Shown here: positions 28,042-50,891 of the stretch, in pieces
How positions within the stretch are numbered: the stretch's first letter is position 1
Layout: each line of letters starts with the position of its first letter
IMG/VR virus record: IMGVR_UViG_3300045988_108176
Location: 1 to 55,487 of that record
Length of the DNA stretch: 55,487 nt
Direction: 5' to 3' (one strand)
Source: a virus
Notes under the pieces: generated by a model
The model's database searches: none
Seen by the model: the letters and a program-made list of their open reading frames with translations, nothing else
What the model was told of the DNA's origin: nothing
Program-made: the position numbers and the translations under genes

Positions 28042-28295
28042 AATTAAATTTTAAAGTTAGGTTAAAGAACAAGTTGTTTTGGACAACCATGATACCTGCC
28101 GTGATTTTACTTGTAACGCAGGTATGTAAATTATTCGGTCTCAATTTGGACCTTAGTGGTGTATCATCTTCGTTACTAGACATAGTTTCTACAGTATTTA
28201 TAATTTTAACAATTTTGGGTATTGTTAATGACCCAACTACTAACGGCATGTCTGATTCAGACCTTGCAATGACATACAAAGAGCCTAAACGATAA
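28038..28295 (+). CDS. holin (phi LC3 / Phage_holin_1 family)
   Basis: NFKVRLKNKLFWTTMIPAVILLV...GIVNDPTTNGMSDSDLAMTYKEPK closely matches the family pattern. Confidence 0.85.
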   Translation: MKLNFKVRLKNKLFWTTMIPAVILLVTQVCKLFGLNLDLSGVSSSLLDIVSTVFIILTILGIVNDPTTNGMSDSDLAMTYKEPKR

Positions 28296-28313
28296 AAACA
28301 TATACTATTATGG
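28290..28313 (+). promoter_or_regulatory. promoter-like core c0 (no hairpin; overlaps the holin stop)
   Basis: cgatAAAAACAtatacTATTATGG. Confidence 0.5.
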
Positions 28314-28348
28314 AGTAAAATCCATACTTTATATTTTAGGAGGATGCT

Positions 28349-28534
28349 ATGAACATTGTTGAAAACATAATCGAAAAGGGTTTGTTTGTTATTGGAGGCG
28401 CTCTGTTGGGGTTGATTATATCTAAAAAGGTATACGACGTCAATAGTGATGCCTATATTAACGACATGGCAAACATACAGTGTAAGCTAGACGAAATTGA
28501 TAGCAAAGTTCAGGTCATTTATGACAGAAAGTAA
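28349..28534 (+). CDS. small membrane protein (cassette 0)
   Basis: 61 aa, AGGAGG SD, TM segment GLFVIGGALLGLII. Confidence 0.6.
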   Translation: MNIVENIIEKGLFVIGGALLGLIISKKVYDVNSDAYINDMANIQCKLDEIDSKVQVIYDRK

Positions 28535-28553
28535 AAAGTAAAACCCAATAAGG

Positions 28554-28613
28554 GCACTCACTTGAAAAACAGTGGGTGTTCTTTTTTGACGATAGAAACA
28601 TGGTGTATTATGG
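28554..28613 (+). promoter_or_regulatory. cassette junction J1: terminator hairpin + T-run + promoter-like core
   Basis: 8-bp stem (2 G-U), loop TTGAAAAACA, TCTTTTTT, then cgatAGAAACA-N5-TATTATGG. Confidence 0.6.
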
Positions 28614-28652
28614 AGTAAAATCCGAAATATTTTTGACATTTAGGAGGAAAAC

Positions 28653-28784
28653 ATGAGTACAATGATATTGTTATTGGCTAAGATAGGGGGTATGATATTG
28701 TTTTATCTACCTTATGTATTGTTCGCAATATTCGAGATATTTGTATGTTATGCGTTTATCAATATCAAATGGTTTGAAAAGTAA
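28653..28784 (+). CDS. 43-aa hydrophobic micropeptide (cassette 1; paralogue of 29835)
   Basis: AGGAGG is 7 nt before the ATG. MSTMILLLAKIGGMILFYLPYVLFAIF... Not in the track (<60 aa). Confidence 0.55.
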   Translation: MSTMILLLAKIGGMILFYLPYVLFAIFEIFVCYAFINIKWFEK

Positions 28785-28803
28785 AGGATTAACCCAGACA
28801 AAG

Positions 28804-28863
28804 GCACTCACTTGAAAAACAGTGGGTGTTCTTTTTTGACGATAGAAACATCGTATATTATGG
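28804..28863 (+). promoter_or_regulatory. cassette junction J2
   Basis: Same hairpin and core. Confidence 0.6.
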
Positions 28864-28903
28864 GATAAATACCAAAAACTATATTTTTTGGAGGATTTTT
28901 GTT

Positions 28904-29227
28904 ATGAAAACGAACTCAAAGGAAATCGACGGAATGGAGAAAGTAAGGAAAGAATTCGAGGAGATGTCTGATGACAATCTAAAAAAATGGACAGAACTCG
29001 TCTTTCAAAAATATGAAGAATACGGTGGCGAGGTTATTGACGCTCACATAAACCCTGATACAGGCGAATTCTGTATCGAGTATAGAGCTGATGGAATTAG
29101 ACTACAAGATGTATTCCATATTCATAACTTTGATAAAGATGAGGGTCGTATTGATTGGATGTGTTGTACTCGAACGTTAGACCCTCTTTCTACGTTTATC
29201 GATGATGAGAACGAAGACAAAGAATAA
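28904..29227 (+). CDS. hypothetical acidic protein (cassette 2)
   Basis: 107 aa. Starts at the ATG after GGAGGA. The track start 28826 lies in the repeat. Confidence 0.6.
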   Translation: MKTNSKEIDGMEKVRKEFEEMSDDNLKKWTELVFQKYEEYGGEVIDAHINPDTGEFCIEYRADGIRLQDVFHIHNFDKDEGRIDWMCCTRTLDPLSTFIDDENEDKE

Positions 29228-29252
29228 GAATAAGGTTTAAAACCCAACTAGG

Positions 29253-29313
29253 GCACTCACTTGAAAAACAGTGGGTGTTCTTTTTTTAACGAGAAAAACA
29301 TATACTATTATGG
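29253..29313 (+). promoter_or_regulatory. cassette junction J3
   Basis: Same hairpin and core. Confidence 0.6.
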
Positions 29314-29353
29314 GATAAATACCCAAAACTATATTTTTTGGAGGATTTTTGTT

Positions 29354-29710
29354 ATGAAATGCTATACTAAGAAGAAGTCGGAAAACGTGCGTGCTGCATT
29401 TAAGGCACAGGCAGAAGCGGCTGAGTACAATTGGCGTTGCTTCTTTGACAAAACTTTTGAAACTTTAGGAGAGTACAGAATGTTGGACGTTTGGTCTAAT
29501 TATGAAACTTGCACGACGTGGTGTATGTTCGAATTTAACAATGAACGATATGATGTGGTCTTCGAGCTAGCAAAAGTGGGCAAAGATTGGAGCGTAAAGG
29601 AATTGAACTTTACCGTATTCGGTACTGACCTGCACATGGCAAGCGTTATTCGTAAATACCTTCTTGATGTATTGAAAAACGTACAAGAAAGAATGGAAAA
29701 CGAAAAATAA
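29354..29710 (+). CDS. hypothetical protein (cassette 3)
   Basis: 118 aa, same 5' UTR as cassette 2. Confidence 0.6.
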   Translation: MKCYTKKKSENVRAAFKAQAEAAEYNWRCFFDKTFETLGEYRMLDVWSNYETCTTWCMFEFNNERYDVVFELAKVGKDWSVKELNFTVFGTDLHMASVIRKYLLDVLKNVQERMENEK

Positions 29711-29733
29711 AAGGTAATATTTATCTACCAAAG

Positions 29734-29793
29734 GCACTCACTTGAAAAACAGTGGGTGTTCTTTTTTGACGATGGAAACAAGCGCTATTATGG
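29734..29793 (+). promoter_or_regulatory. cassette junction J4
   Basis: Same hairpin and core. The 5' UTR is the same as J1. Confidence 0.6.
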
Positions 29794-29834
29794 AGTAAAA
29801 TCCGAAATATTTTTGACATTTAGGAGGCAAAAAC

Positions 29835-29981
29835 ATGGTAACGATAGCAATATTGTCAATATTGTTGTTAGCAGTGATAGGAGGCATTATATTAAGTTAT
29901 ATGCCGTATATCTTAATAGCAATAATGGCAGCATCTGTTATTTTATTAACAGTGGCAGTCTGCAAATGGATTGTAAAATAA
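29835..29981 (+). CDS. 48-aa hydrophobic micropeptide (cassette 4; paralogue of 28653)
   Basis: MVTIAILSILLLAVIGGIILSYMPYILIAI...; AGGAGG SD. Confidence 0.55.
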   Translation: MVTIAILSILLLAVIGGIILSYMPYILIAIMAASVILLTVAVCKWIVK

Positions 29982-30003
29982 AGGATAAAAACCTAAAACT
30001 AGG

Positions 30004-30063
30004 GCACTCACTTGAAATACAGTGGGTGTTCCTTTTTGACGATAAAAACATAGTATATTATGG
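30004..30063 (+). promoter_or_regulatory. cassette junction J5
   Basis: Same hairpin (loop TTGAAATACA) and core. Confidence 0.6.
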
Positions 30064-30103
30064 AGTAAAATCCTAATAAAATTTTTAAAAATGGAGGCAT
30101 ACT

Positions 30104-30166
30104 ATGATTGTCGGTATAATACTATTGGTACTTGGTGTATATCTGATAACAAAGAATGACGGTTGA
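30104..30166 (+). CDS. 20-aa hydrophobic micropeptide (cassette 5)
   Basis: MIVGIILLVLGVYLITKNDG; GGAGG is 7 nt upstream. Confidence 0.35.
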   Translation: MIVGIILLVLGVYLITKNDG

Positions 30167-30194
30167 GAAAAATAAGGTAGGAATTAACACTAAG

Positions 30195-30254
30195 GCACTC
30201 ACTTGAAATACAGTGGGTGTTCCTTTTTGACGAGAAAAACATAGTATATTATGG
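30195..30254 (+). promoter_or_regulatory. cassette junction J6
   Basis: Same hairpin and core. Confidence 0.6.
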
Positions 30255-30337
30255 AGTAAATATATGATATAATTTTATTATGAAAGGAGGAAACTTATGT
30301 AATAAAATAAAGTTTCATATTTTTTGTTATCCTTTGG

Positions 30338-30397
30338 GCACTCACTTGAAATACAGTGGGTGTTCTTACTTGACGATAAAAACATAGTATATTATGG
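30338..30397 (+). promoter_or_regulatory. cassette junction J7 (weak T-run)
   Basis: Same hairpin and core. Confidence 0.5.
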
Positions 30398-30443
30398 AGT
30401 AAAATCCTAATAAAAATTTTTATATTTTTGGAGGAAATTTTTT

Positions 30444-30584
30444 ATGGCAACATTAATCATTTTAGGACTTGTTTGTTCTTTCGCCGGAGGCGTGCTTAGC
30501 GCAATCGGCAACAAAAAACAACAAAGAAAAATGGTACGGGAAGAAGTTAAGAAAATATATATCCACGGATTAAAAAAGAAGTAA
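30444..30584 (+). CDS. 46-aa TM + basic-tail micropeptide (cassette 7)
   Basis: MATLIILGLVCSFAGGVLSAIGNKKQQRK...; GGAGGA SD. Confidence 0.5.
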   Translation: MATLIILGLVCSFAGGVLSAIGNKKQQRKMVREEVKKIYIHGLKKK

Positions 30585-30602
30585 AGGATTAACCGGATAA
30601 GG

Positions 30603-30663
30603 GCACTCACTTGAAAAACAGTGGGTGTTCTTGTTTTTACCAGAAAAACATGTTGTTTTATGG
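30603..30663 (+). promoter_or_regulatory. cassette junction J8 (core variant TTTTATGG)
   Basis: Same hairpin; ccagAAAAACAtgttgTTTTATGG. Confidence 0.55.
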
Positions 30664-30705
30664 GATAAACGCCAATAATTTATATTTTATCGGAGGAAAG
30701 TAACG

Positions 30706-30873
30706 ATGTTCACAGGAGCATGGAAAGTGCTTATAGATATTATATATAACATTACAGGAAGTATGTGTTTAGGAGTATACATATTTTCTTTGTTGACAGT
30801 GTTAGAAATATTATCAATAAGTGTAATTATAGGAAACGTCGCATTACGAATCATTAGAAAAAATAAGAAATAA
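30706..30873 (+). CDS. 55-aa membrane micropeptide (cassette 8)
   Basis: CGGAGGA SD; hydrophobic core CLGVYIFSLLTVLEILSISVIIG. Confidence 0.5.
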   Translation: MFTGAWKVLIDIIYNITGSMCLGVYIFSLLTVLEILSISVIIGNVALRIIRKNKK

Positions 30874-30892
30874 GGTTTAAAACCCAAACTGG

Positions 30893-30952
30893 GCACTCAC
30901 TTGAAAAACAGTGGGTGTTCCATTTTAACATCAAAAACAAGCCCTATTATGG
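30893..30952 (+). promoter_or_regulatory. cassette junction J9
   Basis: Same hairpin, weak T-run, core catcAAAAACAagcccTATTATGG. Confidence 0.5.
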
Positions 30953-30991
30953 AATATTTTCCTAATTTATATTTTTTGGAGGACTTAAGAC

Positions 30992-31150
30992 ATGATTGAC
31001 AAAACGGGATATGACGTTGTGGAATTGAACGACTACAGAATGACTTGTTATCACAAATACGATGATATTAACAAGCTGCATCATTATGTAGTCGTCTACA
31101 TTAAGGACAACGGTGAAGCCGTAGAAACAATATGGACAGATAAAGAATAA
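30992..31150 (+). CDS. 52-aa soluble small protein (cassette 9)
   Basis: GGAGGA SD; MIDKTGYDVVELNDYRMTCYHKYDD... Confidence 0.5.
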   Translation: MIDKTGYDVVELNDYRMTCYHKYDDINKLHHYVVVYIKDNGEAVETIWTDKE

Positions 31151-31185
31151 CAAAAGATAAGACAGGACAGGAATTAACTATGAGA

Positions 31186-31245
31186 GCACTTACTTGAAAT
31201 ACAGTGGGTGTTCTTACTTGACGATAAAAACAAGTGCTATTATGG
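31186..31245 (+). promoter_or_regulatory. cassette junction J10 (stem variant GCACTTAC)
   Basis: Degenerate hairpin and core. Confidence 0.45.
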
Positions 31246-31285
31246 GAACTATTTCCTAATTTATATTTTTTTGGAGGTTTGTGTT

Positions 31286-31480
31286 ATGAACACTAAAGAC
31301 TTGACGATGAAACCGAAATATGAGGATTGTATTACAACAATGATATTGATTGTACAGAATCTGTGGAGCATGAGAACGGATGCGCAGATAACTGACAACC
31401 AATATATGGACATCCTCGCTATGATGGATGACATCGTGTATGGGTTGAGCGAGATTCTCGCAAACCAGAAATACGTGTAA
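31286..31480 (+). CDS. 64-aa small protein (cassette 10)
   Basis: GGAGG SD. The track start 31208 lies in the repeat. Confidence 0.55.
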   Translation: MNTKDLTMKPKYEDCITTMILIVQNLWSMRTDAQITDNQYMDILAMMDDIVYGLSEILANQKYV

Positions 31481-31502
31481 AATAGTTTAAACCCAAACTG
31501 GG

Positions 31503-31562
31503 GCACTCACTTGAAATACAGTGAGTGTTCTTGTTTTACCAGAAAAACATGTTGTTTTATGG
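31503..31562 (+). promoter_or_regulatory. cassette junction J11 (perfect stem GTGAGTG)
   Basis: Hairpin and core variant TTTTATGG. Confidence 0.55.
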
Positions 31563-31595
31563 GATAAATACCCAATTATATTTTTGGAGGATTGT

Positions 31596-31904
31596 ATGAA
31601 AAGAACCAAAACTAACTTTCAAAGCTTGAAAGCCGAGGAACGACGGATATTGGCTCAACTGAACAAACTTGACATCAATGATGATGACGAGTATGACAAA
31701 CAATTAACTCGATTGATTAAAATACGAGAGATGATTATCAAATCTACCGACGCGTACTCGAAGCGTCGCGAAATAGTATCATCACTTGTGCCAATAGGAG
31801 TAAGTTGTTGTGTCTTCTTGCTTTCATTATTTGTCGAATACTCAGGTGATTCGATGTTTACATCCGAAGCGTCAAAGGCTTTGTTTAAGAAGTTGACGAA
31901 GTAA
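31596..31904 (+). CDS. 102-aa protein with C-terminal TM segment (cassette 11)
   Basis: GGAGGA SD; LVPIGVSCCVFLLSLFV. Confidence 0.55.
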   Translation: MKRTKTNFQSLKAEERRILAQLNKLDINDDDEYDKQLTRLIKIREMIIKSTDAYSKRREIVSSLVPIGVSCCVFLLSLFVEYSGDSMFTSEASKALFKKLTK

Positions 31905-31940
31905 CAGTCAAAGAAAATAAGATATCTAAGGAGGTAAAAA

Positions 31941-31977
31941 TAGAACAGATTAAACAGTCTGTTCTATTGTTTCAAAA
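31941..31977 (+). terminator. 9-bp perfect hairpin (terminator and/or RBS-bridging structure)
   Basis: tagaacaga/ttaaacag/tctgttcta followed by ttgtttcaaaa. Lies between an orphan AAGGAGGT (31928-31935) and GTG 31978. Confidence 0.5.
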
Positions 31978-32700
31978 GTGAATAATAGGTTAAAATCTAA
32001 CATTTTAATTGGAGCTGGAATAGGGGGACTTATATTTTCCGGAATCCAGCTTTTCAACATCGGTAAAAAACACGCTAATTTGTATTCTGATAAGTTGATT
32101 TCCAGAAAACAGAAAATACAGAGCACGTGGAAAAGCTATATTCCGGTAGCGATTAATGTTGTTACGTCATCAGGTGCGATAATCGCAGGTGCTATTGGAT
32201 TGAATAATGCAATCGTAGCTACGTCTACACTGGTCGGAGTGACACAGAACGCTCTCGCTAGCTATAAATCAGCGGTTGCCGATACGGTTTCAAATGAAGT
32301 TAAAGACGCAATCCAAGAGAAAGCCAATAAAAAAGCCATGGACTCTGATGATTCAGAACCTTCTCCGAATGACACACCTAAGATGGAGGAAATGATGTGC
32401 TATGATTCATTTATCGGAAGATATTTTTATTCGAATATATTAAGTCTCGAACGAGCTATTAATAATGTGAACCGAGACTTAATGAATTACGATACATGTT
32501 CCTTAAATGAGTTCTACGCGTATCTAGATAAAGATGGTTCGGACGTCGGAAATATAGTCGGCTGGACGTCAAAAGAGTATGAACGTTCCGGCAATGGTCT
32601 TGATATTGTGTATCATTACGAAAAGTCAAAACACGGGTATCCGGTGCTGGTATTTTCGTATACTAGCGACCCGGTGTATAATTTTAACAAGTCTTATTAA
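31978..32700 (+). CDS. membrane protein, GW-motif family member 1 (GTG start uncertain)
   Basis: N-terminal TM segments; C-terminal SLNEFYAYLD...GNIVGWTSKEY. Confidence 0.5.
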   Translation: MNNRLKSNILIGAGIGGLIFSGIQLFNIGKKHANLYSDKLISRKQKIQSTWKSYIPVAINVVTSSGAIIAGAIGLNNAIVATSTLVGVTQNALASYKSAVADTVSNEVKDAIQEKANKKAMDSDDSEPSPNDTPKMEEMMCYDSFIGRYFYSNILSLERAINNVNRDLMNYDTCSLNEFYAYLDKDGSDVGNIVGWTSKEYERSGNGLDIVYHYEKSKHGYPVLVFSYTSDPVYNFNKSY

Positions 32701-32717
32701 TCTGGAGGCATAATCAT

Positions 32718-32891
32718 ATGAGTAGGAATGTGGAACTGATGAGGGAAATACGATTGTGGACAACTAACATAATCATCCCAGTCGGTATTGTTGCATTTAT
32801 CGTTATTAAACGAAATCCTGCAAAGTGGACGTCGTTTAAAAATTCTGTCAAGAACAAATTTAAAAAAGCTAAAGACGAGGTATCAAAATGA
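32718..32891 (+). CDS. 57-aa membrane protein, translationally coupled to 32888
   Basis: GGAGG SD; TM segment NIIIPVGIVAFIVI; ATGA overlap. Not in the track. Confidence 0.5.
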   Translation: MSRNVELMREIRLWTTNIIIPVGIVAFIVIKRNPAKWTSFKNSVKNKFKKAKDEVSK

Positions 32892-33628
32892 GTTTCAGTG
32901 AATTTTTTAAAAAAAACGGGCATTATATTCTTAGTGCTTTGAGCGTTGCAGGAACGGTAGCGTCTATCATACTTACAGCAAAGGTAACACCCAAAGCCGT
33001 ACAACGAAAAGAAGAGTTGAAAAAACAGAAGGGTGACGAATTTACAAAAAAGGACGCTATCATTAGCGATATTAAATCGTACGCTCCTGTAATAGCTACC
33101 GGAATAGGTACTGTGGCTAGCATCGTCGGAAATACGATTCTGTCAAACAGACAACAGGCATCTTTGATTGGATTGTATACGTTTGCGAATGCGTCATACG
33201 GAAAATACAAAGACAAAATCAATTCTGCATTGGAAAGGGCAGGACTTAAGGATAAAATTGAGGAAGACATCGTTAGACAAGATGCCCGTGATATGGGATT
33301 AACTATATCTGATGATAAGCCAGATACTATACTCGTATATGACATGTTTACTTTGTCATACATCGAAACTACGATAGACGAACTCTTGTCAGCAGAGAAT
33401 TACGTTAATGAACGAGTTCGTAAATACGGGCGGTGCTCTGTTGAACAATTCTATAACTGTTTAGACATGGATATTATCTTTAGGAATTATTATGACGACG
33501 AATATCCAATAAGCATGCGTAACTTGTGGTGGATAGATAACGAAGTCAATTTTGAGCATCGTAGAGCTTGCATAGATGAGAATTTTTATGTATTGATGTT
33601 GTCGTTTGAAGAACCGCAATTGCTGTAA
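32888..33628 (+). CDS. membrane protein, GW-motif family member 2 (divergent)
   Basis: Shared K.Y.P TM region and C-terminal CSVEQFYNCLD. Confidence 0.5.
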   Translation: MSFSEFFKKNGHYILSALSVAGTVASIILTAKVTPKAVQRKEELKKQKGDEFTKKDAIISDIKSYAPVIATGIGTVASIVGNTILSNRQQASLIGLYTFANASYGKYKDKINSALERAGLKDKIEEDIVRQDARDMGLTISDDKPDTILVYDMFTLSYIETTIDELLSAENYVNERVRKYGRCSVEQFYNCLDMDIIFRNYYDDEYPISMRNLWWIDNEVNFEHRRACIDENFYVLMLSFEEPQLL

Positions 33629-33640
33629 GGAGAATCGATA

Positions 33641-34324: not shown

Positions 34325-34442
34325 CGTTTTAGGAACCGTCTGTGATTTGATAGGCGGATTTCTTATCGCAAGATATTTGGAAGACGACATGAAAAAAGAA
34401 ATATCAGCAGAAATAAAAAAGTACGAGACGAAAACAAACTGA
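34311..34442 (+). CDS. possible 43-aa small ORF
   Basis: ATG overlaps the end of 33641. The SD is distant (11 nt). Weak. Confidence 0.25.
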   Translation: MNVINVLGTVCDLIGGFLIARYLEDDMKKEISAEIKKYETKTN

Positions 34443-34466
34443 CGAGAAAAACAAACGCTATTATGG
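34443..34466 (+). promoter_or_regulatory. promoter-like core c12
   Basis: cgagAAAAACAaacgcTATTATGG. Confidence 0.5.
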
Positions 34467-34500
34467 GACACTACCAAAAAAATAAAACTTGGAGGATACT

Positions 34501-34650
34501 ATGATAGTAGGGTTAATATTTGGAATAGTTTGTGTTGTATCAATTTCAAAGGCGGTCCGCAAGTATAAGAAAGACGAAGCGGAAGCATTGAGGAACGAAT
34601 GCGCACATCATATCCATAGAAGTGTACATCATAATATACATGATAGGTAA
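34501..34650 (+). CDS. 49-aa TM peptide with His-rich tail
   Basis: GGAGGA SD; MIVGLIFGIVCVVSIS...HHIHRSVHHNIHDR. Confidence 0.5.
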   Translation: MIVGLIFGIVCVVSISKAVRKYKKDEAEALRNECAHHIHRSVHHNIHDR

Positions 34651-34671
34651 AATAGGTAAGTAGAAAGCAAG

Positions 34672-34712
34672 AGGGTCATCAATAAAACGATGGCCTTTTT
34701 GTTTTATTTTTT
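34672..34712 (+). terminator. rho-independent terminator
   Basis: Stem agggtcatc/gatggcctt (two G-U pairs), 8-nt loop, long T-run. Confidence 0.6.
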
Positions 34713-34714
34713 GA

Positions 34715-34738
34715 CGAGAAAAACAAACTATATTATGG
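34715..34738 (+). promoter_or_regulatory. promoter-like core c13
   Basis: cgagAAAAACAaactaTATTATGG. Confidence 0.5.
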
Positions 34739-34779
34739 GATACTTCCCAATTTTTTAAATTAAGAGGAGATTTATTATT

Positions 34780-35073
34780 ATGAACGAACTCAACGAAAAC
34801 GTAACTCACGTAACTAACGCGGTTGAAAATGCGGTAACCCACTGTGTTGGTGCAACTGATATTACTGAAACAGCAGTATCATCAGCGAAAAATTTAACGC
34901 TTGGAGGAATAGGAATTGGCGTAGCTGCATCTGCAGCAATCGGCGGTCTTATTTACGGCGGAATTAAGCTGTATAAGCTGCTGGACAGAAAAATCAAGGA
35001 GCACAAAAACAGAAAGGTTGTTGACATCAACGACTGTGATGTGATTGATTGTGACGGAGAAGAAGTTAAATAA
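34780..35073 (+). CDS. small membrane protein
   Basis: 97 aa; GAGGAG SD; TM segment LGGIGIGVAASAAIGGLIYGGI. Confidence 0.55.
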   Translation: MNELNENVTHVTNAVENAVTHCVGATDITETAVSSAKNLTLGGIGIGVAASAAIGGLIYGGIKLYKLLDRKIKEHKNRKVVDINDCDVIDCDGEEVK

Positions 35074-35103
35074 AACTCAATACGATTAAAAAAGGAGGTA
35101 TGT

Positions 35104-35146
35104 AAAGGGGATTGTGATTAAAAACGCAGTCTCCTTTATATTTTTT
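35104..35146 (+). terminator. hairpin (8-bp stem, one G-U, 18-nt loop) + T-run; terminator or RBS-bridging structure
   Basis: aaagggga...tctccttt then atatttttt. Lies between an orphan GGAGG (35094-98) and ATG 35148. Confidence 0.4.
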
Positions 35147-35147
35147 C

Positions 35148-35735: not shown

Positions 35736-35981
35736 ATGAGTACTGTGAATCATCCTAGGCACTATTCGGGAACGAAAGTAGAATGTATCGACGCCATTGA
35801 ATCAGCCATTTCTAATAAGAATGGTATTGAAGGTTTTTATGTAGGTCAGATTATTAAGTATATTTGGCGGTTTGACCAAAAGAATGAAATCGAAGATTTG
35901 GAGAAAGCAAGATGGTATTTGAACCGTCTTATAAAGATTAAGAATAAAACATATGTGAAGGACACAAAGGAGGAAAAGTAA
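35736..35981 (+). CDS. DUF3310-family protein
   Basis: HPRHY...ECIDAIE...GQIIKYIWRFDQKN.IEDLEKARWYL signature. Confidence 0.8.
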   Translation: MSTVNHPRHYSGTKVECIDAIESAISNKNGIEGFYVGQIIKYIWRFDQKNEIEDLEKARWYLNRLIKIKNKTYVKDTKEEK

Positions 35982-36850
35982 TGATATCATTTAATACAGT
36001 TAAAAATTTCGTGAAGGCATGCCTGCCTACAGCACTTACTACTATGGGTGTAATCGGTATCGGCGTGTTTGGATATTCTGTAAAGAAGGGCGCAGAAAAA
36101 CATATCGCAGCAAAGAAGAAGCACGAAGAAACCGCGGCTGTCATCGAAGATGCAAAAAACGACGAGACATTCGAATATACTGAAGAAGATATTGCGAACG
36201 ATACTAAGGTAAACGACCTGACTTACGCTCGCGAATGCGTTAAGGCATATATTCCTTCTGTACTCGTTGGTGGCCTTACAACTGCTGCGTTTGTAGGCGC
36301 ACACTGTATCTTGAACAAACGCTACCTCACGCTTGGTAGTGCATTTATCGGAGTTTCGAGTGCTTTTAATAAGTACAGAGAAAACGTGAAAGAAAAGTAC
36401 GGTGAGGATGCTGATAGGCAGTTCAGATTCAATGTAAAAGATGTTAAACCGCCTGAAGACGGAACTACGTCTAAGAAGAAAAAGCAGACTGAAAAAACCA
36501 TCGAACCTGAGCACAGTGCCTATACAAGATGCTTCTGTAAAGGGAGCCCGGGTTGGACTGATGACGCAGAAGATAGATTGTTCTACCTGTTGAAGATGCA
36601 ACGGTTCGCGAATGAAAAATTCAGCGTAAATAAGACTATGACCCTTAACGAGGTGTATGAAATGCTCGGATTCCCGAGGACACCGCAGGGACAACTCGTA
36701 GGCTGGAGCAAGAAGATAGACAAAAACGCAAAGATTGATTTTGGTATCTATGATATTTCAGATGAATCAAAACGTTTGTTTATCAACGGATATGAACCGG
36801 GTATTTGGCTGGACTTTAATGTCCAAGGAGACGTGTTGCAGTATATCTAA
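35981..36850 (+). CDS. membrane protein, GW-motif family member 3
   Basis: TM segments; C-terminal MTLNEVYEMLGFPRTPQGQLVGWSKK. Confidence 0.5.
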   Translation: MISFNTVKNFVKACLPTALTTMGVIGIGVFGYSVKKGAEKHIAAKKKHEETAAVIEDAKNDETFEYTEEDIANDTKVNDLTYARECVKAYIPSVLVGGLTTAAFVGAHCILNKRYLTLGSAFIGVSSAFNKYRENVKEKYGEDADRQFRFNVKDVKPPEDGTTSKKKKQTEKTIEPEHSAYTRCFCKGSPGWTDDAEDRLFYLLKMQRFANEKFSVNKTMTLNEVYEMLGFPRTPQGQLVGWSKKIDKNAKIDFGIYDISDESKRLFINGYEPGIWLDFNVQGDVLQYI

Positions 36851-38025: not shown

Positions 38026-41000
38026 ATGGACTTCTATTTAATAGCAACTAAAAGAAGTAAGGATATGACAATTGAAGTCTATCCTAAATTTATCGTTAAT
38101 CGTACTAACGATTTGATGATAAGAGGTGGCGATTTTTATGCCGTTTGGAATGAGAAAGAACAGCTGTGGTCAACAGACGAAAACGTTCTGTTGAACCTGA
38201 TTGACAATGACGTAAAACAGTACGCAACTAAATTACAAGAGGAGAAACCTGACGTTACGGTCATTCCAAAATTTCTTTGGGATTCAGAATCAGGTCTCAT
38301 AGACAAATGGCATAAATATTGCCAAAAGCATCTTAGGGACAACTACGTACAATTAGATGATAAAATAACTTTCGCTGACCAACATCCCAAAAAAGAAGAC
38401 CATGTGTCCAAAAAGCTTTCATATACGTTAAACGATGGTCCTACGGACGCATGGGACGAACTTGTAGGTACTTTATATTCTTCGGCGGAAAAGGAAAAGA
38501 TAGAATGGGCCATAGGTTCAATTGTAGCAGGAGATTCTGTAAATATACAAAAATTCCTCGTGTTTTACGGTTCTGCTGGTACTGGTAAGTCAACAGTACT
38601 TAATATTATCCAGAAGTTGTTTGAAGGATATTATTCTGTATTTGACGCCAAGGCCTTAGGCTCTTCTAACAACTCTTTTGCTCTTGAACCGTTTAAGTGT
38701 AATCCATTGGTTGGCATACAACATGACGGCGACTTGTCGAGAATCGAAGATAATACTAGACTAAACAGTCTTGTATCACACGAGATGATGACCGTGAATG
38801 AGAAGTATAAGTCGTTGTACAGTAATCGGTACAGGTGTTTCTTATTCATGGGAACTAACAAACCCGTTAAGATAACCGACTCACGTTCTGGTATAATCAG
38901 ACGATTGATAGACGTTTCACCGACGGGTAAGAAGGTAAGCCAGCAGAAATACAATACGCTTACTAAAAAGATAGACTTTGAACTTGGTGCTATTGCGAAT
39001 AAGTGTAAGAAAGTCTATCTGAGTAATCCCACAAGATATGACAAATACGTTCCGGTTATAATGTTGAACGCTAGTAATGATTTTTATAATTTTGTTTTAG
39101 ATTCATACAACAAATTTATGGAAAACGACGGCGTTCCTCTTAAAGTTGCATGGGAAATGTATAAGAACTACTGCGATGAAGCAAAAGTTCAGTATCCGTT
39201 TTCGATGCGAATATTCAGAGAAGAATTGAGGAACTACTTCTATGAATATCACGAACGTTATATTTTGGAGGATGGAACACGAGCTAGGAGTTATTATCAT
39301 GGTTTTAAGGACTTGAATGTATCGGAAGAATCTCAGTGCGAAAATGATAATCATACGGACAATGGATGGCTTTCTATGAAATCTCAACCATCTGTTCTGG
39401 ATGATATTTTAAAAGACCAACCGGCACAATATGCGAATAATGACGGTCTTCCGTATAAAAAATGGGATTTAGTTAAAACCACGTTGTCATCTATTGACAC
39501 ATCTATATTGCACTATGTCAAAGTACCGCTTAATCATATAGTTATAGACTTCGACTTGAAAGACAATGGCGAAAAGTCTTTAGCTAAAAACATAGAAGCT
39601 GCGTCAAAATTTCCAAAGACGTATGCAGAGTTGAGTAAGAGCGGTAAAGGTGTTCACTTACATTATATTTATGAAGGAGATGTCTCTAAGCTAGCAGGCA
39701 TTTACTCAGAGAACATAGAAGTAAAAGTGTTCAATGGTAATTCGTCATTAAGACGACTTTTAACGAAATGTAACAACGAGCAAATAGCTGTAATAAATTC
39801 AGGACTTCCAACAAAAAAAGAAAACAAAGTGATAGATTTCAATGGATTAAAAAATGAAAAAGCTATCAGAACGGTTATATCGAGGCATTTGAAAAAAGAA
39901 ATAATGCCGTCGACCAAATCGTCGATAGACATGATATACAAAACTTTGGAAGAGGCGTATAATAGTGGTATTAACTACGACGTATCCGATTTGAAAAACG
40001 TAATCTACGCATTTGCAATGAATAGTACAAATCAGTCAGTTTATTGCATTAAAAAAGTAGCAGACATGAAATTCTGGGCAGAGCATGAAACTGTCAAGGA
40101 TTTAAATGAGGATAACACCGACGACCTCGTGTTTTTCGATGTAGAGGTGTTCCCCAATCTGTTTCTTATAAATTGGAAATTTAAGGGTGATGTTAATCCT
40201 GTCATACGCTTAATAAATCCAACACCGAACGATGTTGATAATCTTTGCAAACACAATTTAATCGGGTTCAACTGTAAACGATATGATAACCATATGTTAT
40301 ACGCACGGTTAATCGGTTATTCGAATGAAGAACTGTATAACCTAAGTCAAAAGATAATAACCGAAGGTAAAGGATTCTTTGGTCAGGCATATAGTTTGTC
40401 ATACGCAGATGTATACGATTTTGCTTCTGCTGGAAACAAAATGTCGTTGAAGAAGTTTGAAATAAAATTGGGTATACATCACAAAGAACTCGGTATGCCG
40501 TGGGATGAGCCGGTTAAAGACGAGGACATTCCAAAGGTAGCCGAATACTGTGACAACGATGTCATAGCTACAGAAGCGGTGTTCGATTTCTTGAAGGGCG
40601 ACTGGTTTGCTAGACAGATACTTGCTGATTTGTCAGGATTGTCTCTGAACACCTCTACAAACGAGCATACAGCTCGAATTATATTTGGTGCAGAGAAGAA
40701 TCCACAGAAAGAATTCAGATATAGGGATTTGTCAAAACCCGTCTTCGAACTCGACGAAGATGTATTGATATTTTTGAAAAAGTATTTCCCGGATATGATG
40801 GCGATTCGTCATGGTGAAGCGAATAGTCTTTTACCTTATTTTGACGGATACAAGTTCGATAAAGGTGTATCTACGTACAAAGGTATCGAGGTTGGTGAAG
40901 GAGGATTGGTATATTCTGAACCCGGTGTATATTTTAACGTTGCATTGTTAGACATAACGTCTCAGCATCCACATTCTACATTGTCTGAATGTTACTTCGG

Positions 41001-41931
41001 GCCTAAGTATACACAAAACTATATGGACCTCGTAGAAACGAGGGTTGAAGTCAAACATCAAAATGTGAACGTATTAAGAACAATGTTGGATGGTAAACTG
41101 TCGAAATATGTAGGTCGTATTGAATCGGGGGAACTCAGTTCTAAATATCTGTCGAACGGTCTTAAAACTCCTATAAATGCAGTTTACGGTCAGACATTTG
41201 CTTCGTTTGACAATCGTTTTCGTGATATTCGAAACATCGATAACATAATTGCGAAACGAGGCGCATTATTTATGGTCGACCTAAAGGAATTCGTAGAATC
41301 TAAAGGATTCACGGTCGCTCATATAAAGACGGACTCGATAAAGATACCAAATGCTACACCTGAAATAATTGAACAGGTTAAAGAGTTTGGTAAGAAGTAT
41401 GGTTATAACTTTGAACACGAAGCGACTTACGAAAAATTGTGTCTCGTAAATAAAGCAGTATATATAGCTAAAGACGCCAAAGATGGTCATTGGACTGCAA
41501 CAGGTACTCAATTCGCTGTTCCATACGTGTTCAAAACATTGTTCTCTCACGAACCAATTATATTTTCGGATTTGTGCGAGACTAAGACAGTTTCCACAGA
41601 AATGCTTTTGGATATGAATGAAACTCTTCCTGATGGCGAACACAATTATCAGTACGTAGGAAAAGTTGGAGCTTTTTGTCCTATAAAATCCGGACATGGC
41701 GGAGGCGTCTTGGTCAGCAGAAGAAAAAACAAAGATGGTTCATCTAAATACGATTCAGTCACAGGTACAAAAGACTATATGTGGCTTGAGTCAGAAGACG
41801 TAAAAAATCTAGGAAAGGAAGACGATATTGATATTTCATATTATGATAGTTTAGTTGATGACGCGGTAAAAACTATAAGTAAATATGTAAATTTCAATGA
41901 ATTTGTCGAAGATGAAGATAGTAGAGTTTGA
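38026..41931 (+). CDS. fused replicase: D5/P4-type SF3 helicase + AEP primase-polymerase + family B DNA polymerase
   Basis: - Helicase: Walker A GSAGTGKST (aa ~182), FLFMGTNKP, SGIIRRLIDV
- AEP: VIDFDLKD and SGKGVHLHY (aa ~506-545)
- PolB: ExoI FFDVEVF (~702), ExoII GFNCKRYD, ExoIII YCDNDV, motif A DITSQHPHS (~974), motif B KTPINAVYGQ (~1047), motif C KTDS (~1100). Confidence 0.75.
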   Translation: MDFYLIATKRSKDMTIEVYPKFIVNRTNDLMIRGGDFYAVWNEKEQLWSTDENVLLNLIDNDVKQYATKLQEEKPDVTVIPKFLWDSESGLIDKWHKYCQKHLRDNYVQLDDKITFADQHPKKEDHVSKKLSYTLNDGPTDAWDELVGTLYSSAEKEKIEWAIGSIVAGDSVNIQKFLVFYGSAGTGKSTVLNIIQKLFEGYYSVFDAKALGSSNNSFALEPFKCNPLVGIQHDGDLSRIEDNTRLNSLVSHEMMTVNEKYKSLYSNRYRCFLFMGTNKPVKITDSRSGIIRRLIDVSPTGKKVSQQKYNTLTKKIDFELGAIANKCKKVYLSNPTRYDKYVPVIMLNASNDFYNFVLDSYNKFMENDGVPLKVAWEMYKNYCDEAKVQYPFSMRIFREELRNYFYEYHERYILEDGTRARSYYHGFKDLNVSEESQCENDNHTDNGWLSMKSQPSVLDDILKDQPAQYANNDGLPYKKWDLVKTTLSSIDTSILHYVKVPLNHIVIDFDLKDNGEKSLAKNIEAASKFPKTYAELSKSGKGVHLHYIYEGDVSKLAGIYSENIEVKVFNGNSSLRRLLTKCNNEQIAVINSGLPTKKENKVIDFNGLKNEKAIRTVISRHLKKEIMPSTKSSIDMIYKTLEEAYNSGINYDVSDLKNVIYAFAMNSTNQSVYCIKKVADMKFWAEHETVKDLNEDNTDDLVFFDVEVFPNLFLINWKFKGDVNPVIRLINPTPNDVDNLCKHNLIGFNCKRYDNHMLYARLIGYSNEELYNLSQKIITEGKGFFGQAYSLSYADVYDFASAGNKMSLKKFEIKLGIHHKELGMPWDEPVKDEDIPKVAEYCDNDVIATEAVFDFLKGDWFARQILADLSGLSLNTSTNEHTARIIFGAEKNPQKEFRYRDLSKPVFELDEDVLIFLKKYFPDMMAIRHGEANSLLPYFDGYKFDKGVSTYKGIEVGEGGLVYSEPGVYFNVALLDITSQHPHSTLSECYFGPKYTQNYMDLVETRVEVKHQNVNVLRTMLDGKLSKYVGRIESGELSSKYLSNGLKTPINAVYGQTFASFDNRFRDIRNIDNIIAKRGALFMVDLKEFVESKGFTVAHIKTDSIKIPNATPEIIEQVKEFGKKYGYNFEHEATYEKLCLVNKAVYIAKDAKDGHWTATGTQFAVPYVFKTLFSHEPIIFSDLCETKTVSTEMLLDMNETLPDGEHNYQYVGKVGAFCPIKSGHGGGVLVSRRKNKDGSSKYDSVTGTKDYMWLESEDVKNLGKEDDIDISYYDSLVDDAVKTISKYVNFNEFVEDEDSRV

Positions 41932-44013: not shown

Positions 44014-44205
44014 TCAAGATTAAAGGGTAAGGTCAATTCAATAACTATTAGACATTGGGGTCAGCATAGCCAATGCCGGTGACAAGTAGCGCTAGTCATT
44101 TACTCTCGTATGCCTCTTAACAATGCCCACTATGCGAGCTGACCGTCGCTTTCTAGTTCCGATGCGTAAAATAGAACTAGATTCTTTATATTTTAGAGAG
44201 GATAT

Positions 44206-45440: not shown

Positions 45441-45499
45441 GTATGAATTTAGCAATTGTCCTGTAACTAGAATAGATTTAATATGGAGGAAGAAATAAA

Positions 45500-45676
45500 A
45501 TGGAGATTTTGCTTTTTGGGTTGTTTGCGGCAGGTTTTGGATGCTTACTTATTAGTACACACAGCTGGGCATATGACGGACTTAGGTACGCCATCCCTTG
45601 GTGGGTGGCTTGGTTTGTTTTGCATGGAGCACTTATCGTTATTGAGATACTTCGAGTAAAAGGAATTATTGGATAA
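45500..45676 (+). CDS. 58-aa membrane protein, paralogue A1
   Basis: ATGGAGGA SD; ...THSWAYDGLRYAIPWWVAWF... Confidence 0.55.
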   Translation: MEILLFGLFAAGFGCLLISTHSWAYDGLRYAIPWWVAWFVLHGALIVIEILRVKGIIG

Positions 45677-45691
45677 AATGGAGGAAGAGAT

Positions 45692-45871
45692 ATGATATCG
45701 TTTTTACTTTTCACGGGAATGTTGCTCGGTTTTGAGTTATTGTTTATTGGCACTCACAGTTGTATATATGACGGATTTAGATATGCAATACCGTGGTATG
45801 TCGCGTGGTTTATAATACATGGTGGTACTTTTGTTGGACTATTGCTTATGGCAAGAGGAATCATTGGTTAA
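45692..45871 (+). CDS. 59-aa membrane protein, paralogue A2
   Basis: ...THSCIYDGFRYAIPWYVAWF...; same SD context. Confidence 0.55.
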   Translation: MISFLLFTGMLLGFELLFIGTHSCIYDGFRYAIPWYVAWFIIHGGTFVGLLLMARGIIG

Positions 45872-45890
45872 AATGGAGGAGGAAATTATA

Positions 45891-46169: not shown

Positions 46170-46178
46170 GAGGTTATT

Positions 46179-46457: not shown

Positions 46458-46470
46458 GGAGGAAATTATA

Positions 46471-46719: not shown

Positions 46720-46748
46720 CGTTTGATTTATAAGAAGGAGGTAATCAT

Positions 46749-47027
46749 ATGTGTTTCATCTATCATGAATTTAACGACCTTACATTCGAGCGAATCTGCA
46801 CTCTTAACGGTGTATATACAGTTTATATTCGTGAGTGTACTAACGGAACGTACGAACTTTCAATTAGTGAAAAGGGTATTTATATTAATCCGAAGATTTT
46901 CATGAATTGTAAAACGAGAGGTTTGACTGCTGTTAATATGACTCTCAATGATGTTAACGCATTTTGTGACGCTGTGCGCGATTTTGATTTAAAAAATAAA
47001 AAAAAATATAGTTTGTTTGATATATAA
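46749..47027 (+). CDS. small protein, paralogue C2
   Basis: YELSISEKGIYINPKIFMNC...VNMTLNDVNAFCDAVRDF. Confidence 0.55.
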   Translation: MCFIYHEFNDLTFERICTLNGVYTVYIRECTNGTYELSISEKGIYINPKIFMNCKTRGLTAVNMTLNDVNAFCDAVRDFDLKNKKKYSLFDI

Positions 47028-47040
47028 GAAGGAGATAATT

Positions 47041-47301
47041 ATGGAAAACTTTGAGACCATATACCAAAACGAAAAGGAATGGCTTTGTACTCTAGGTGAC
47101 ACATACACTATAGAGTTTTTCGACGGTGTTGCGGGTACGCGTGACCTTGAAATTTATGATAATACGGGGTCTATCATAAATCCGAATGAGTTTATGAATT
47201 GTACCACGGATGGATTCCGTGCAGTTAATTTATCACAGGATGATGTTAAAATGTTTTTAAAAGCAGTAATCAATCACACAGTAGAAAAATCAAGGAGGTA
47301 A
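47041..47301 (+). CDS. small protein, paralogue C3, with an nrdJ-like N-terminus
   Basis: MENFETIYQNEKEWL compares with the RNR N-terminus MEKFETIYKNEKEWL. LEIYDNTGSIINPNEFMNC...VNLSQDDVKMFLKAV. Confidence 0.55.
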   Translation: MENFETIYQNEKEWLCTLGDTYTIEFFDGVAGTRDLEIYDNTGSIINPNEFMNCTTDGFRAVNLSQDDVKMFLKAVINHTVEKSRR

Positions 47302-47303
47302 TT

Positions 47304-49787: not shown

Positions 49788-49807
49788 AAAGGAAAGGAGG
49801 TCGTGTT

Positions 49808-50008
49808 GTGACCTTACGTGATTTTTTAAACTTATTCTCAGATGATGAATGTGGTTTTGTCATCATAAATAACGTAAACGATAATCATAATATGATATTA
49901 TCGAAGCATCAGGTAATAATGATGCACGAAGACAAACTAAATAATGTTATAAAACGTGTGTATCCATATGCATGGAATTGGGAGGTTATTTTCGAAATAA
50001 ACGTATGA
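49808..50008 (+). CDS. hypothetical protein (GTG start)
   Basis: AAGGAGGT is 6 nt upstream. Confidence 0.45.
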   Translation: MTLRDFLNLFSDDECGFVIINNVNDNHNMILSKHQVIMMHEDKLNNVIKRVYPYAWNWEVIFEINV

Positions 50009-50139
50009 AATATAACACAAAACTCATTTTAGTAAATGGACATTACGAGTTATATGTAAATAACCAGTTTTTTTGTTCCGGAGATACACCAAAAGAATGT
50101 TATGAGGAGTTGGAGAAAAATGAGCAAGAAGAGAATTAG
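50005..50139 (+). CDS. 44-aa small protein
   Basis: ATGA coupling; MKYNTKLILVNGHYELYVNNQFFCSGDTPKEC. Not in the track. Confidence 0.4.
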   Translation: MKYNTKLILVNGHYELYVNNQFFCSGDTPKECYEELEKNEQEEN

Positions 50140-50467
50140 CATCGAGGAATGTTATGTATTTATTAAATTCGTCAGTGAACATATGACCGATAATTTTAAA
50201 CCGGATGATATTCCTGATGACTTTATCGCTTATACAGATTTACTAAGGGAAGCTGCTAATTATCTAAAGATAGCTATGACTGGCAGACTTCCAGAAGACC
50301 GACTTGTTTATCATCAAAATACTGTAATCAAGTATCTGAAAATTTTGTATGGCGTCATGCCAAAGAGTAGTGACGGAAAGTATAACCCTGCGGATGTCGT
50401 GGAATCGAGCATTATGTGGCTTGAGGATTACTTCAACAAACATGACGATACTTGGAGCAGAATATGA
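50120..50467 (+). CDS. hypothetical protein
   Basis: ATG 50120 follows GGAG. Confidence 0.5.
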   Translation: MSKKRISIEECYVFIKFVSEHMTDNFKPDDIPDDFIAYTDLLREAANYLKIAMTGRLPEDRLVYHQNTVIKYLKILYGVMPKSSDGKYNPADVVESSIMWLEDYFNKHDDTWSRI

Positions 50468-50486
50468 TAAAATAGTAAAAATCTAT

Positions 50487-50845
50487 GCCCACTTTTGGAG
50501 AAAAAAGTGGGCATAAAAGTGGGCAAAAGTGGGCAAAAGTGGGTGGAATGCGTAAATACGCACATTTATATTTTTAAAATGTGGGTTTTTCTGCCCACTT
50601 TTACCATTTTCAGCCCACTTTTGGAGAAAAAAATGGCCACGAAAAATAGGCAAATAATATATTATTTGGGGGTAAAAATGCCCAAAATGGGGTAAAAATG
50701 GGTATTTTTGGGCAAAATAATATATTATTTGGGGGTAAAAACGCTTCTGTGGCCAAAAACCCACTTTTTTTCTTTATGATTATTATTATTAATATTATTA
50801 ATAAAAAGTTTTATCGAAAAAAAAGTGGGTTTTTGGCCACGAGTA
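50487..50845. repeat. iteron-like region: at least 10 copies of AAAAGTGGG(C/T) in both orientations, two 27-nt direct repeats each with a 14-bp AT palindrome, and an AT-only tract
   Basis: - Inverted pair: 50487-50496 and 50503-50512
- Tandem copies: 50515-24, 50525-34, 50535-44
- Reverse-orientation copies: 50593-602, 50613-22, ~50759
- Forward-orientation copy: ~50820
- caaa(t/a)aatatattatttgggggtaaaaa twice, at ~50651 and ~50713. Confidence 0.8.
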
Positions 50846-50867
50846 GTTTTTTCGGTCAAGGGGGTGA

Positions 50868-50891
50868 CGAGAAAAACAAGGCCTTTTATGA
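50868..50891 (+). promoter_or_regulatory. promoter-like core c14 upstream of the tRNA
   Basis: cgagAAAAACAaggccTTTTATGA. Confidence 0.45.

Follow-up and report, generated by a model that had tools for sequence, protein, structure and literature searches.

Repeated sites of about 27 bp as probable promoters of a phage-encoded two-barrel polymerase

The 55,487-nt viral sequence IMGVR_UViG_3300045988_108176 (hereafter the window, by which we mean the whole stretch of DNA that was analysed) carries 15 copies of a conserved site in its non-structural half and, downstream of the last copy, the gene of a 970-aa protein with the polymerase motif DFDGD. We propose, with a probability of about 0.7, that these sites are promoters of about 27 bp which are read by the phage's own 970-aa polymerase and not by the host enzyme. 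They would drive 12 cassettes that encode very small and for the most part hydrophobic peptides (a repeated hairpin resembling an intrinsic terminator insulates 11 of these cassettes on their upstream side), two further small units and a tRNA-nuclease-polymerase operon. The proposal is built on the sites, their strand and position, a geometry that is not that of sigma-70, the linkage to one polymerase family and the polymerase fold of the protein; from these we infer that the 970-aa protein is the enzyme using the sites, at which base exactly it would start and which contacts its helix-turn-helix (HTH) segments would make.

The 15 copies had been listed in an earlier note on this DNA under the pattern CGAnAAAAACA-N5-TWTTATGG. 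With up to two mismatches allowed, this pattern matches 15 times, at the positions given there and always on the plus strand, while 0.00 matches are expected in shuffled sequence. A position weight matrix (PWM) was built over -4..+34 from the 15 copies and both strands were scanned, with 20 shuffles as background. The copies scored 29.5-52 (12.8-50.4 in leave-one-out), the next-best site on either strand 2.9, and the maximum in the 20 shuffles was 5.4. Owing to the gap between 29.5 and 2.9, the copy set can be taken as closed, with no copy in the structural half (1-28 kb), where the earlier note had seen none by eye and the PWM found none either. The scan confirms a partition between non-structural and structural genes; the split into early and late genes which the note had associated with it is not demonstrated in this way. 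The invariance claimed for AAAAACA and TTATGG holds in part: only AAACA is fixed, since copies 28590 and 28840 (named by the start of the pattern) read AGAAACA and copy 29770 reads GGAAACA, and TTATGG is present in 14 of the 15, copy 50868 having TTATGA.

Counted with the first G after TTAT as +1, each site (-24..+3) consists of a GC block at -24..-21 (GACG here, CGCG in most relatives), an A/T tract at -20..-15, ACA at -14..-12, a free 5-nt spacer, T(A/T)TTAT at -6..-1 and GG(A/G) at +1..+3. The hexamers of sigma-70 or sigma-A promoters are separated by 17 +/- 1 nt, with a working range of about 15-21, and transcription starts about 6-9 nt past the -10. A sigma-70 promoter was rejected for the present sites: the spacer is 14 nt in 15/15 copies, and the hexamers found at 16-18 nt read TTTTTG, TTTTGA or similar. 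A conserved -35 element was rejected as well. TTGACG-14 nt-TATTAT, which had been ascribed to many copies, is indeed found in 8 of the 15; the -35-like hexamer of the other seven reads TTTACC (two copies), TTAACG, TTAACA, TAAACG, CTGACG or GTGACG. The "-35" positions of 63 unique instances, taken from 42 unrelated viral contigs, read ttCGCGAaAA, with 1.2-1.8 bits at these unselected upstream positions, and TTGACG is, by this comparison, a clade-specific accident, a variant of CGCG. The N5 stretch holds 0.1-0.2 bits in the same instances (63 instances, 42 loci), so that there is no TGn or extended -10. Moreover, three window copies and all those of the Faecalibacterium phage FP_oengus have T where a -10 hexamer would have A at position 2; this A is thus dispensable, which argues against a -10 of the sigma-70 type.

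Canonical sigma-70-type promoters are not enriched genome-wide (20 observed versus 18.5 +/- 3 in shuffles), and the search for a second promoter class or a strong sigma-A promoter in the 35-51 kb module and at the polymerase/structural junction gave nothing above shuffle background. Two further assignments were tried and rejected. The A-tract as an alternative -10 (e.g., TAAAAT in Arthrobacter phage Mudcat) is at odds with most lineages, because these have AAAAAAA, with no T. Sigma-54 promoters (-24/-12; TGGCAC-N5-TTGCW, with GG and GC 10 nt apart) are alike only in the layout of element, N5 and element; the sequence does not match and the start would lie too far downstream. The best plus-strand sigma-70-like site near the array is located at 28177-28204 (TAGACA-16 nt-TATAAT, 11/12 matches), inside the open reading frame (ORF) 28038-28295 and some 85 nt ahead of promoter copy 1; host polymerase might enter here, though such sites occur at chance frequency.

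The likely start is indicated by the position of the ribosome-binding sites. Relatives have at least six independent promoters with only 0-3 nt between TTAT and the Shine-Dalgarno sequence, each followed by a real ORF of 50-70 aa, and in Lactococcus phage 1706 it is found 2 nt past TATAGT. A Shine-Dalgarno sequence directly after TTAT places the start at about the following G, since a host-type start 6-9 nt further on would remove the ribosome-binding site. We infer that +1 is about the G following TTAT, as in T7-type promoters. Of 97 leaders in the window clade, 77 form a hairpin whose 5' end coincides precisely with the first G, with a mean z of -3.7 which is lost on a +7 shift; because the 97 sequences are related, we use this signal as supporting evidence only. 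Spacer, hexamers and start geometry, along with the linkage to a polymerase family described below, support the earlier suggestion that the conserved positions are not those expected for sigma-70 and that a phage-specific factor or polymerase recognises the sites.

Searches for DNA similarity to known phages, in near and distant modes, gave no match. Relatives were gathered by protein similarity and by the motif, and the motifs of annotated relatives were found by a de novo repeat search. FP_oengus (polymerase 44% identical) carries 12 copies of GA-CGCG-AAAAAT-ACA-N5-CTTTAT-GGAA, phage 1706 (35% identical) 12 copies of TT-CGCA-TGTTTT-ACA-N5-TATAGT-AGAA, Mudcat (42% identical) seven copies of TT-CGCG-TAAAAT-ACA-N5-TATAAT-GGAG and the metagenomic contig L080 (41% identical) several copies of TT-CGCG-ATATTT-ACA-N5-TATAAT-GAAG. 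The shared consensus, which is also found in dozens of metagenomic contigs, is TT-CGCG-N6(A/T)-ACA-N5-TATAAT-like-GRA in one register. In the relatives, too, the copies are coding-strand sites, many of them directly preceded by a hairpin and T-run, and are located outside the structural genes; they are confined to 24-46.5 kb in 1706 and to 2.3-27.7 kb in FP_oengus.

A test PWM, trained only on motif-selected, non-close contigs, was applied to 25 loci (345 kb) that had been picked independently by polymerase similarity, and it found 25 sense and 0 antisense matches. Ten loci have a match at -909 to -961 nt from the polymerase start, in L079 the nearest lies at -1412, and the equivalent in the window is copy 15. 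Among the motif-selected fragments, the polymerase is carried by L002, L027, L028, L040 and L052 and by contigs L116, L121 and L145 of Christensenellaceae metagenome-assembled genomes (MAGs). In these sequences, the motif co-occurs and co-diverges with the phage-encoded polymerase, the lineage variants holding one register, with L086-L090 as exceptions. For the assignment of a host, the scan of a genome collection yielded no more than an 'uncultured Clostridia bacterium' MAG associated by binning, and many of the single matches were chance matches inside genes.

Two side observations concern the motif itself. An unrelated, highly conserved sequence, TTTGTACGACAAAAACAACCAATATTATGGGAGTATCTAAACTCTCAAATC, is a chance match to the search pattern in L010, L108, L109, L117, L125, L127, L143, L159, L160, L170, L172, L175 and L176; it recurs in many gut MAGs of differing taxa and is possibly another mobile element. 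In several FP_oengus copies (L093 2280-2320, 4901-4941 and 8240-8280), the N5 is complementary to bases just past the start (e.g., GCCGCC...GGTGGT), which would form a hairpin spanning the start; this was seen by eye and was not found in the window.

The candidate polymerase gene reported in the earlier note is present at 51876..54788 on the plus strand and encodes 970 aa, with HTH and winged-HTH segments at about aa 100-216 and a C-terminal HTH at aa 930-968. The protein matches phrog_4291 ('RNA-dependent RNA polymerase') from end to end (E = 0). Its DFDGD motif (aa 542-546, within SGADFDGDTVM at aa 539-549) is invariant in an alignment of 43 sequences, the protein and 42 homologues. The C-terminal match to Sigma70_r4 reaches 35.3 bits versus a Pfam cut-off of 24.1 bits, and several other HTH families also pass. 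An AlphaFold model (predicted local distance difference test, pLDDT, 76.8; predicted template modelling score, pTM, 0.64) was compared by Foldseek, and QDE-1 was the best match (E 1.7e-8, probability 1.0), followed by plant RDR2, with low TM-scores (about 0.28). Weaker structural matches were obtained with the largest subunits of African swine fever virus and eukaryotic (Pol II) RNA polymerases, and those in a viral structure library were phage 'RNA-dependent RNA polymerases'. According to this model, the 970-aa protein is a polymerase of the two-barrel fold, and the fold and the invariant DFDGD would together indicate a catalytically competent polymerase, more than a DNA binder.

Sequence searches against PDB chains, with the single sequence and with a profile, gave generic HTH matches only. 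Membership in the YonO family was rejected at an hhalign probability of 0.3% when the family profile of the 970-aa protein was compared with YonO; as this profile is shallow (Neff 1.9), a very remote kinship may exist. A screen of 20 further non-structural ORFs revealed no separate phage sigma factor or HTH regulator. In a comparison of the C-terminal HTH with the base change at -24/-23, made to look for co-variation, the window clade has the residues SNII whereas most homologues have SKYL; however, other CGCG-type lineages vary there too. The family comprises at least 8000 protein clusters at E <= 1e-20, and homologues were found in 250 phage records, from phages of Arthrobacter, Gordonia, Streptomyces, Lactococcus, Faecalibacterium and others including Clostridia. 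It is usually annotated as 'HTH DNA-binding protein' or 'RNA-dependent RNA polymerase'. A preprint on this phage supercluster had already described the protein together with its DxDGD loop and its N- and C-terminal HTH domains, with promoters left unmentioned. The peptide HYGMPRRSGRYPWGSGDNPFQH (aa 19-39 of the polymerase, window 51930-51992) is near-invariant across homologues and occurs nowhere else in the genome; AlphaFold predicts this segment to be disordered (pLDDT < 50), and it may possibly be a targeting or interaction signal.

The centres of the CGCG/GACG, ACA and TATTAT blocks lie at about -22.5, -13 and -3.5, with a spacing of about 9.5 bp; this is about one helical turn, so that, to judge from the sequence, all blocks would be exposed on one face of the DNA. 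In the mechanism that we propose, the fused HTH modules of the 970-aa polymerase would dock on the CGCG and ACA blocks, the A/T tract between them might aid bending or minor-groove contacts, and the two-barrel core would melt the AT block (TATTAT) and start with GG. The two-barrel enzymes of phage P23-45, with their dedicated motifs, give a precedent. The proposal can be extended to a non-structural transcription entirely free of host polymerase, by a sigma-independent enzyme with built-in HTH and sigma-region-4-like modules, from a 27-bp promoter common to phages of Actinobacteria and Clostridia, with a first enzyme that is virion-borne, perhaps via the invariant disordered N-terminal HYGMPRRSGRYPWGSG; this extension, taken as a whole, we consider rather doubtful.

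Among the alternatives, the one that survives best is that host RNA polymerase uses the AT block as a -10, while a phage protein bound to CGCG...ACA replaces -35 recognition, much as in the sigma appropriation by MotA/AsiA of T4; the binding protein could be the 970-aa protein itself, as an activator or sigma surrogate. This would account for a block that reads TATTAT here and a perfect TATAAT in Mudcat and L080, for the classic intrinsic terminators that end the cassettes and for the HTH of the sigma-70 region 4 type on the 970-aa protein, and it would solve the bootstrapping, only if the activator gene were expressed otherwise. We regard it as unlikely, as the upstream element ends 5 nt from the AT block, too near to stand in for a -35, the hexamer can do without its A at position 2 and a TGn extension is missing. 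With a start 6-9 nt downstream, the Shine-Dalgarno sequence of at least six promoters, and that in 1706, would be lost in whole or in part, the invariant DFDGD and the two-barrel fold point to a competent polymerase, and the architecture is the same in Arthrobacter and Clostridia hosts.

Nevertheless, several points weigh against the phage polymerase as the enzyme at these sites. The GC-rich polymerase contigs L086-L089, plus L090, have no motif within 10 kb, and a de novo repeat search in L086-L089 (polymerase 36-39% identical) found no motif. No start-site or biochemical data were found for any member of the polymerase family. The polymerase gene lies behind a motif copy with no host-type promoter evident, so that weak host transcription or a virion-borne enzyme would be needed for the first molecules, and in the RefSeq annotation of 1706 the polymerase homologue is not labelled structural. 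The closest solved structures, QDE-1 and RDR2, are RNA-dependent, and DNA-dependent activity is assumed here by analogy to YonO, though YonO has no profile similarity to the protein. The perfect TATAAT of Mudcat and L080 makes some use of host polymerase possible. Eleven cassette promoters follow a classic hairpin and U-run, a signal best known from host polymerases, to which T7 RNA polymerase responds too. Furthermore, the 15-kb replication module (35.1-50.5 kb) has no promoter copy of its own and starts 7 nt past a strong hairpin and T-run, so that read-through seems to be required. Between the 95-aa ORF that follows the polymerase gene (54792-55079) and the structural module there are about 620 nt of non-coding DNA in which no terminator was found; the structural half would be transcribed either from copy 15, with read-through over the genome junction, or from a different, unrecognised promoter.

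The arrangement around the sites suggests units built of terminator, promoter, leader and tiny gene. The repeat exceeds the 24-nt core, with a hairpin upstream and a leader downstream, and 11 copies (28590-31539) share a block of about 100 nt that comprises hairpin, core and leader. Each of these 11 is preceded by the near-identical hairpin GCACTCACTTGAAAwACAGTGGGTGTTC and a T-run, at 28554-28581, 28804-28831, 29253-29280, 29734-29761, 30004-30031, 30195-30222, 30338-30365, 30603-30630, 30893-30920, 31186-31213 and 31503-31530 on the plus strand, and 6-8 nt separate the end of the hairpin from the -24 of the next promoter. The sites are on the coding strand only and, in these 11 cases, directly after the terminator-like hairpins. 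One T:G pair of the stem can wobble only in RNA of the plus strand, as is characteristic of an intrinsic terminator that works on the coding strand. Copies 28290, 34443 and 50868 lack the repeated hairpin and are conserved in the core only, so that the core is an element in its own right. Downstream of the core, a conserved leader with GGAGG is found in all copies except 50868, and the start codon lies 35-48 nt from the GG of the core, after the Shine-Dalgarno sequence. Most units are monocistronic, with ORFs of 20-118 aa of which the majority are hydrophobic, and one unit has only ATG-TAA. The content of the cassettes differs among relatives with polymerases that are 94-97% identical, while the repeats stay nearly identical.

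This anatomy bears on two further alternatives. Repeats that are mainly recombination or shuffling modules, comparable to the PeSL cassettes of T4-like phages and conserved through recent duplication and gene conversion, would fit the 100-nt block common to 11 copies and the variable cassette content between near-identical repeats in close relatives, and PeSLs are a documented precedent. We hold this to be very improbable, since copies 28290, 34443 and 50868 conserve the core only, the N5 is free within the block while its flanking positions are fixed, and the register is kept in lineages with polymerases 35-50% identical and no similarity of the flanking DNA; promoter function could coexist with a shuffling role and is not replaced by it. 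Least probable of all is a motif that works at the RNA level, as a processing site or leader element within longer transcripts, for although the window clade has a conserved leader hairpin from GG and no terminator precedes copies 28290 and 34443, the hairpin and T-run directly ahead of 11 copies call for a new start, the best-conserved positions (CGCG, A-tract, ACA) lie upstream of the leader, and RNA structure is not conserved beyond the window clade.

With the sites read as promoters of the phage polymerase, the individual units can be described as follows, each copy being given from -24 to +3 on the plus strand. Copy 1 (28288..28314), which has no upstream hairpin, is followed by a 61-aa ORF (28349-28534), copy 2 (28588..28614) by a 43-aa hydrophobic ORF (28653-28784), copy 3 (28838..28864) by a 107-aa ORF (about 28904-29227) and copy 4 (29288..29314) by a 118-aa ORF (about 29354-29710). 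Transmembrane-like ORFs of 48 aa (29835-29981) and 46 aa (30444-30584) are found after copies 5 (29768..29794) and 8 (30372..30398), and a hydrophobic ORF of 20 aa (30104-30166) after copy 6 (30038..30064). Copy 7 (30229..30255) is followed only by a Shine-Dalgarno sequence and ATG-TAA. Copy 9 (30638..30664), a TACC / TTTTATGG variant, precedes a 55-aa ORF (30706-30873), copy 10 (30927..30953), an AACA variant, a 52-aa ORF (30992-31150) and copy 11 (31220..31246) a 64-aa ORF (31286-31480). Copy 12 (31537..31563), again a TACC / TTTTATGG variant, heads a 102-aa ORF (31596-31904) and genes up to about 34324. Copy 13 (34441..34467), without an upstream hairpin of the repeated type, precedes a 49-aa ORF (34501-34650), and this unit is closed by an unrelated hairpin and T-run terminator (34664..34705, plus strand). 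It is followed by copy 14 (34713..34739), the final copy ahead of the 15-kb replication module, with a 97-aa ORF (34780-35073) and a closing hairpin and T-run (35100..35141, plus strand) which ends 7 nt before the first gene of that module (35148).

Copy 15 (50866..50892), the weakest, with TTTTATGA, heads the tRNA-Leu(UAA) gene (50939..51024, plus strand), which encodes the sole tRNA of the genome, an endonuclease-like ORF, the exonuclease gene (51313..51873, plus strand; phrog_3953, E 5.9e-67) and, adjoining it, the polymerase gene. The pairing of exonuclease and polymerase genes is kept in relatives, and copy 15 is syntenic with the relatives' copies at -909 to -961 from the polymerase start. 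The copy of the polymerase operon (region 50893-50937 of the window; L093 27700-27750; L073, L070, L076 and L079) mostly has TTTTATGA or TTTTATGG and not TATTATGG. In the relatives it is directly followed by a hairpin and T-run, which could be an attenuator or produce a short RNA. The leader hairpin after window copy 50868 folds no better than shuffled sequence (z = -0.8), and with so weak a hairpin in the window the idea of a conserved attenuator is drawn from the relatives alone. The start-stop cassette (30229-30374), with a full promoter, leader and Shine-Dalgarno sequence and without an ORF, is kept in L015, L017, L026, L037, L039, L056 and L123, that is, in all close relatives examined, and could encode a small RNA or act as a regulatory start-stop.

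Further features of the genome were observed beside the promoters. The first 54 nt of the window (1-54) are identical to its end (55434-55487); the window is thus a complete genome, and this identity indicates that the genome is circularly closed or terminally redundant. The terminal 54 nt contain CCCCGGGGGGGGG and AACAACCCCC runs, and these G/C runs might mark a packaging end. Directly upstream of copy 15, the region 50480-50845 is non-coding and rich in iterons, with at least nine copies of AAAAGTGGGC / GCCCACTTTT in both orientations (the best-resolved direct repeats at 10-nt steps), a 30-mer duplicated at 50652 and 50715 and a perfect 23-bp inverted repeat (50749-50771, 50818-50840) around an AT-rich palindrome; the whole region resembles a replication origin. 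A structured RNA at 44040-44195 was not supported, as the folding was no better than that of shuffled sequence (z = 0.02). Three paralogous DUF6353 proteins are encoded at 31978-32700, 32888-33628 and 35981-36850, and FP_oengus has three too. The gene at 38026-41931 encodes a 1301-aa fusion of a D5-like primase/helicase region (DUF5906) with a DNA polymerase (phrog_4210), which is kept in 1706, FP_oengus and Mudcat. Two adjacent small ORFs (45500-45676 and 45692-45871) encode paralogous-looking membrane peptides, both with ...HS.IYDG.RYAIPW..AWF...

Promoters specific to a phage polymerase and single-chain two-barrel phage polymerases are already known as kinds. In a literature search that covered few subscription papers, no account of this promoter, or of any promoter of the family, was found. 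The present finding is of interest because the family is very large and the consensus is experimentally tractable. Since the consensus is defined across phyla, templates for in-vitro transcription can be designed simply and the enzymology can be tested directly. It would also permit the annotation of transcription units in hundreds of sequenced actinophages and gut phages. If the proposal is true, the 970-aa protein would represent a compact relative of cellular RNA polymerases that carries its own promoter-recognition domains, which would bear on the evolution of sigma-like recognition and might provide an orthogonal expression system for Gram-positive bacteria.

Compared with known systems, the sites share a TATAAT-like hexamer with sigma-70/sigma-A promoters, and an upstream TTGACG in the window clade only; they differ in the 14-nt spacer, in the absence of the -35-like hexamer from relatives and in a start that lies too near the hexamer. 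The PeSL cassettes are composite promoter-terminator units with host sigma-70 early promoters. As in PeSLs, a terminator stem-loop is fused to a promoter and repeated between small variable ORFs in a plastic region; however, the promoters here are not of the host sigma-70 type, and any part that they play in recombination would be hypothetical. YonO of the Bacillus prophage SPbeta, the one phage enzyme of this general type studied by experiment and one whose promoter was left undefined in 2017, is likewise a single-chain enzyme with a distant relationship to multisubunit RNA polymerases, with a DxDGD motif and a gene just upstream of the structural genes. Its motif is DNDGD whereas it is DFDGD here, similarity at the profile level is absent, and SPbeta has one start site for the late operon whereas the window has 15 sites and none in the structural half; the search of a 49-kb SPbeta fragment, including the yonK upstream region, found no related motif.

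Thermus phage P23-45 has two single-chain two-barrel polymerases, gp96 in the virion and gp64 outside it, each with its own promoter motif. These motifs were assigned partly from the co-occurrence of motif and enzyme, and start-site mapping and chromatin immunoprecipitation sequencing (ChIP-seq) exist for them. The enzyme described here belongs to another lineage, with no sequence match to solved chains, and has another motif, and HTH fusions are unmentioned for P23-45. Both systems have a phage-encoded enzyme, single-chain and, in our case by prediction, two-barrel, and a co-occurrence of motif and enzyme across relatives.

Promoters of the T7, T3 and SP6 type are contiguous stretches of about 23-27 bp that end at the start, with an AT-rich block before +1 and initiation with G. 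Unlike these, the site of the window has three parts and a free 5-nt spacer, fused HTH modules and not a specificity loop presumably bring about recognition, the enzyme is predicted to be of the two-barrel type in contrast to the Pol I-like fold, and the polymerase gene lies behind one of its own putative promoters. What the two systems have in common are many near-identical copies on one strand, an AT block upstream of +1 and a phage-encoded polymerase.

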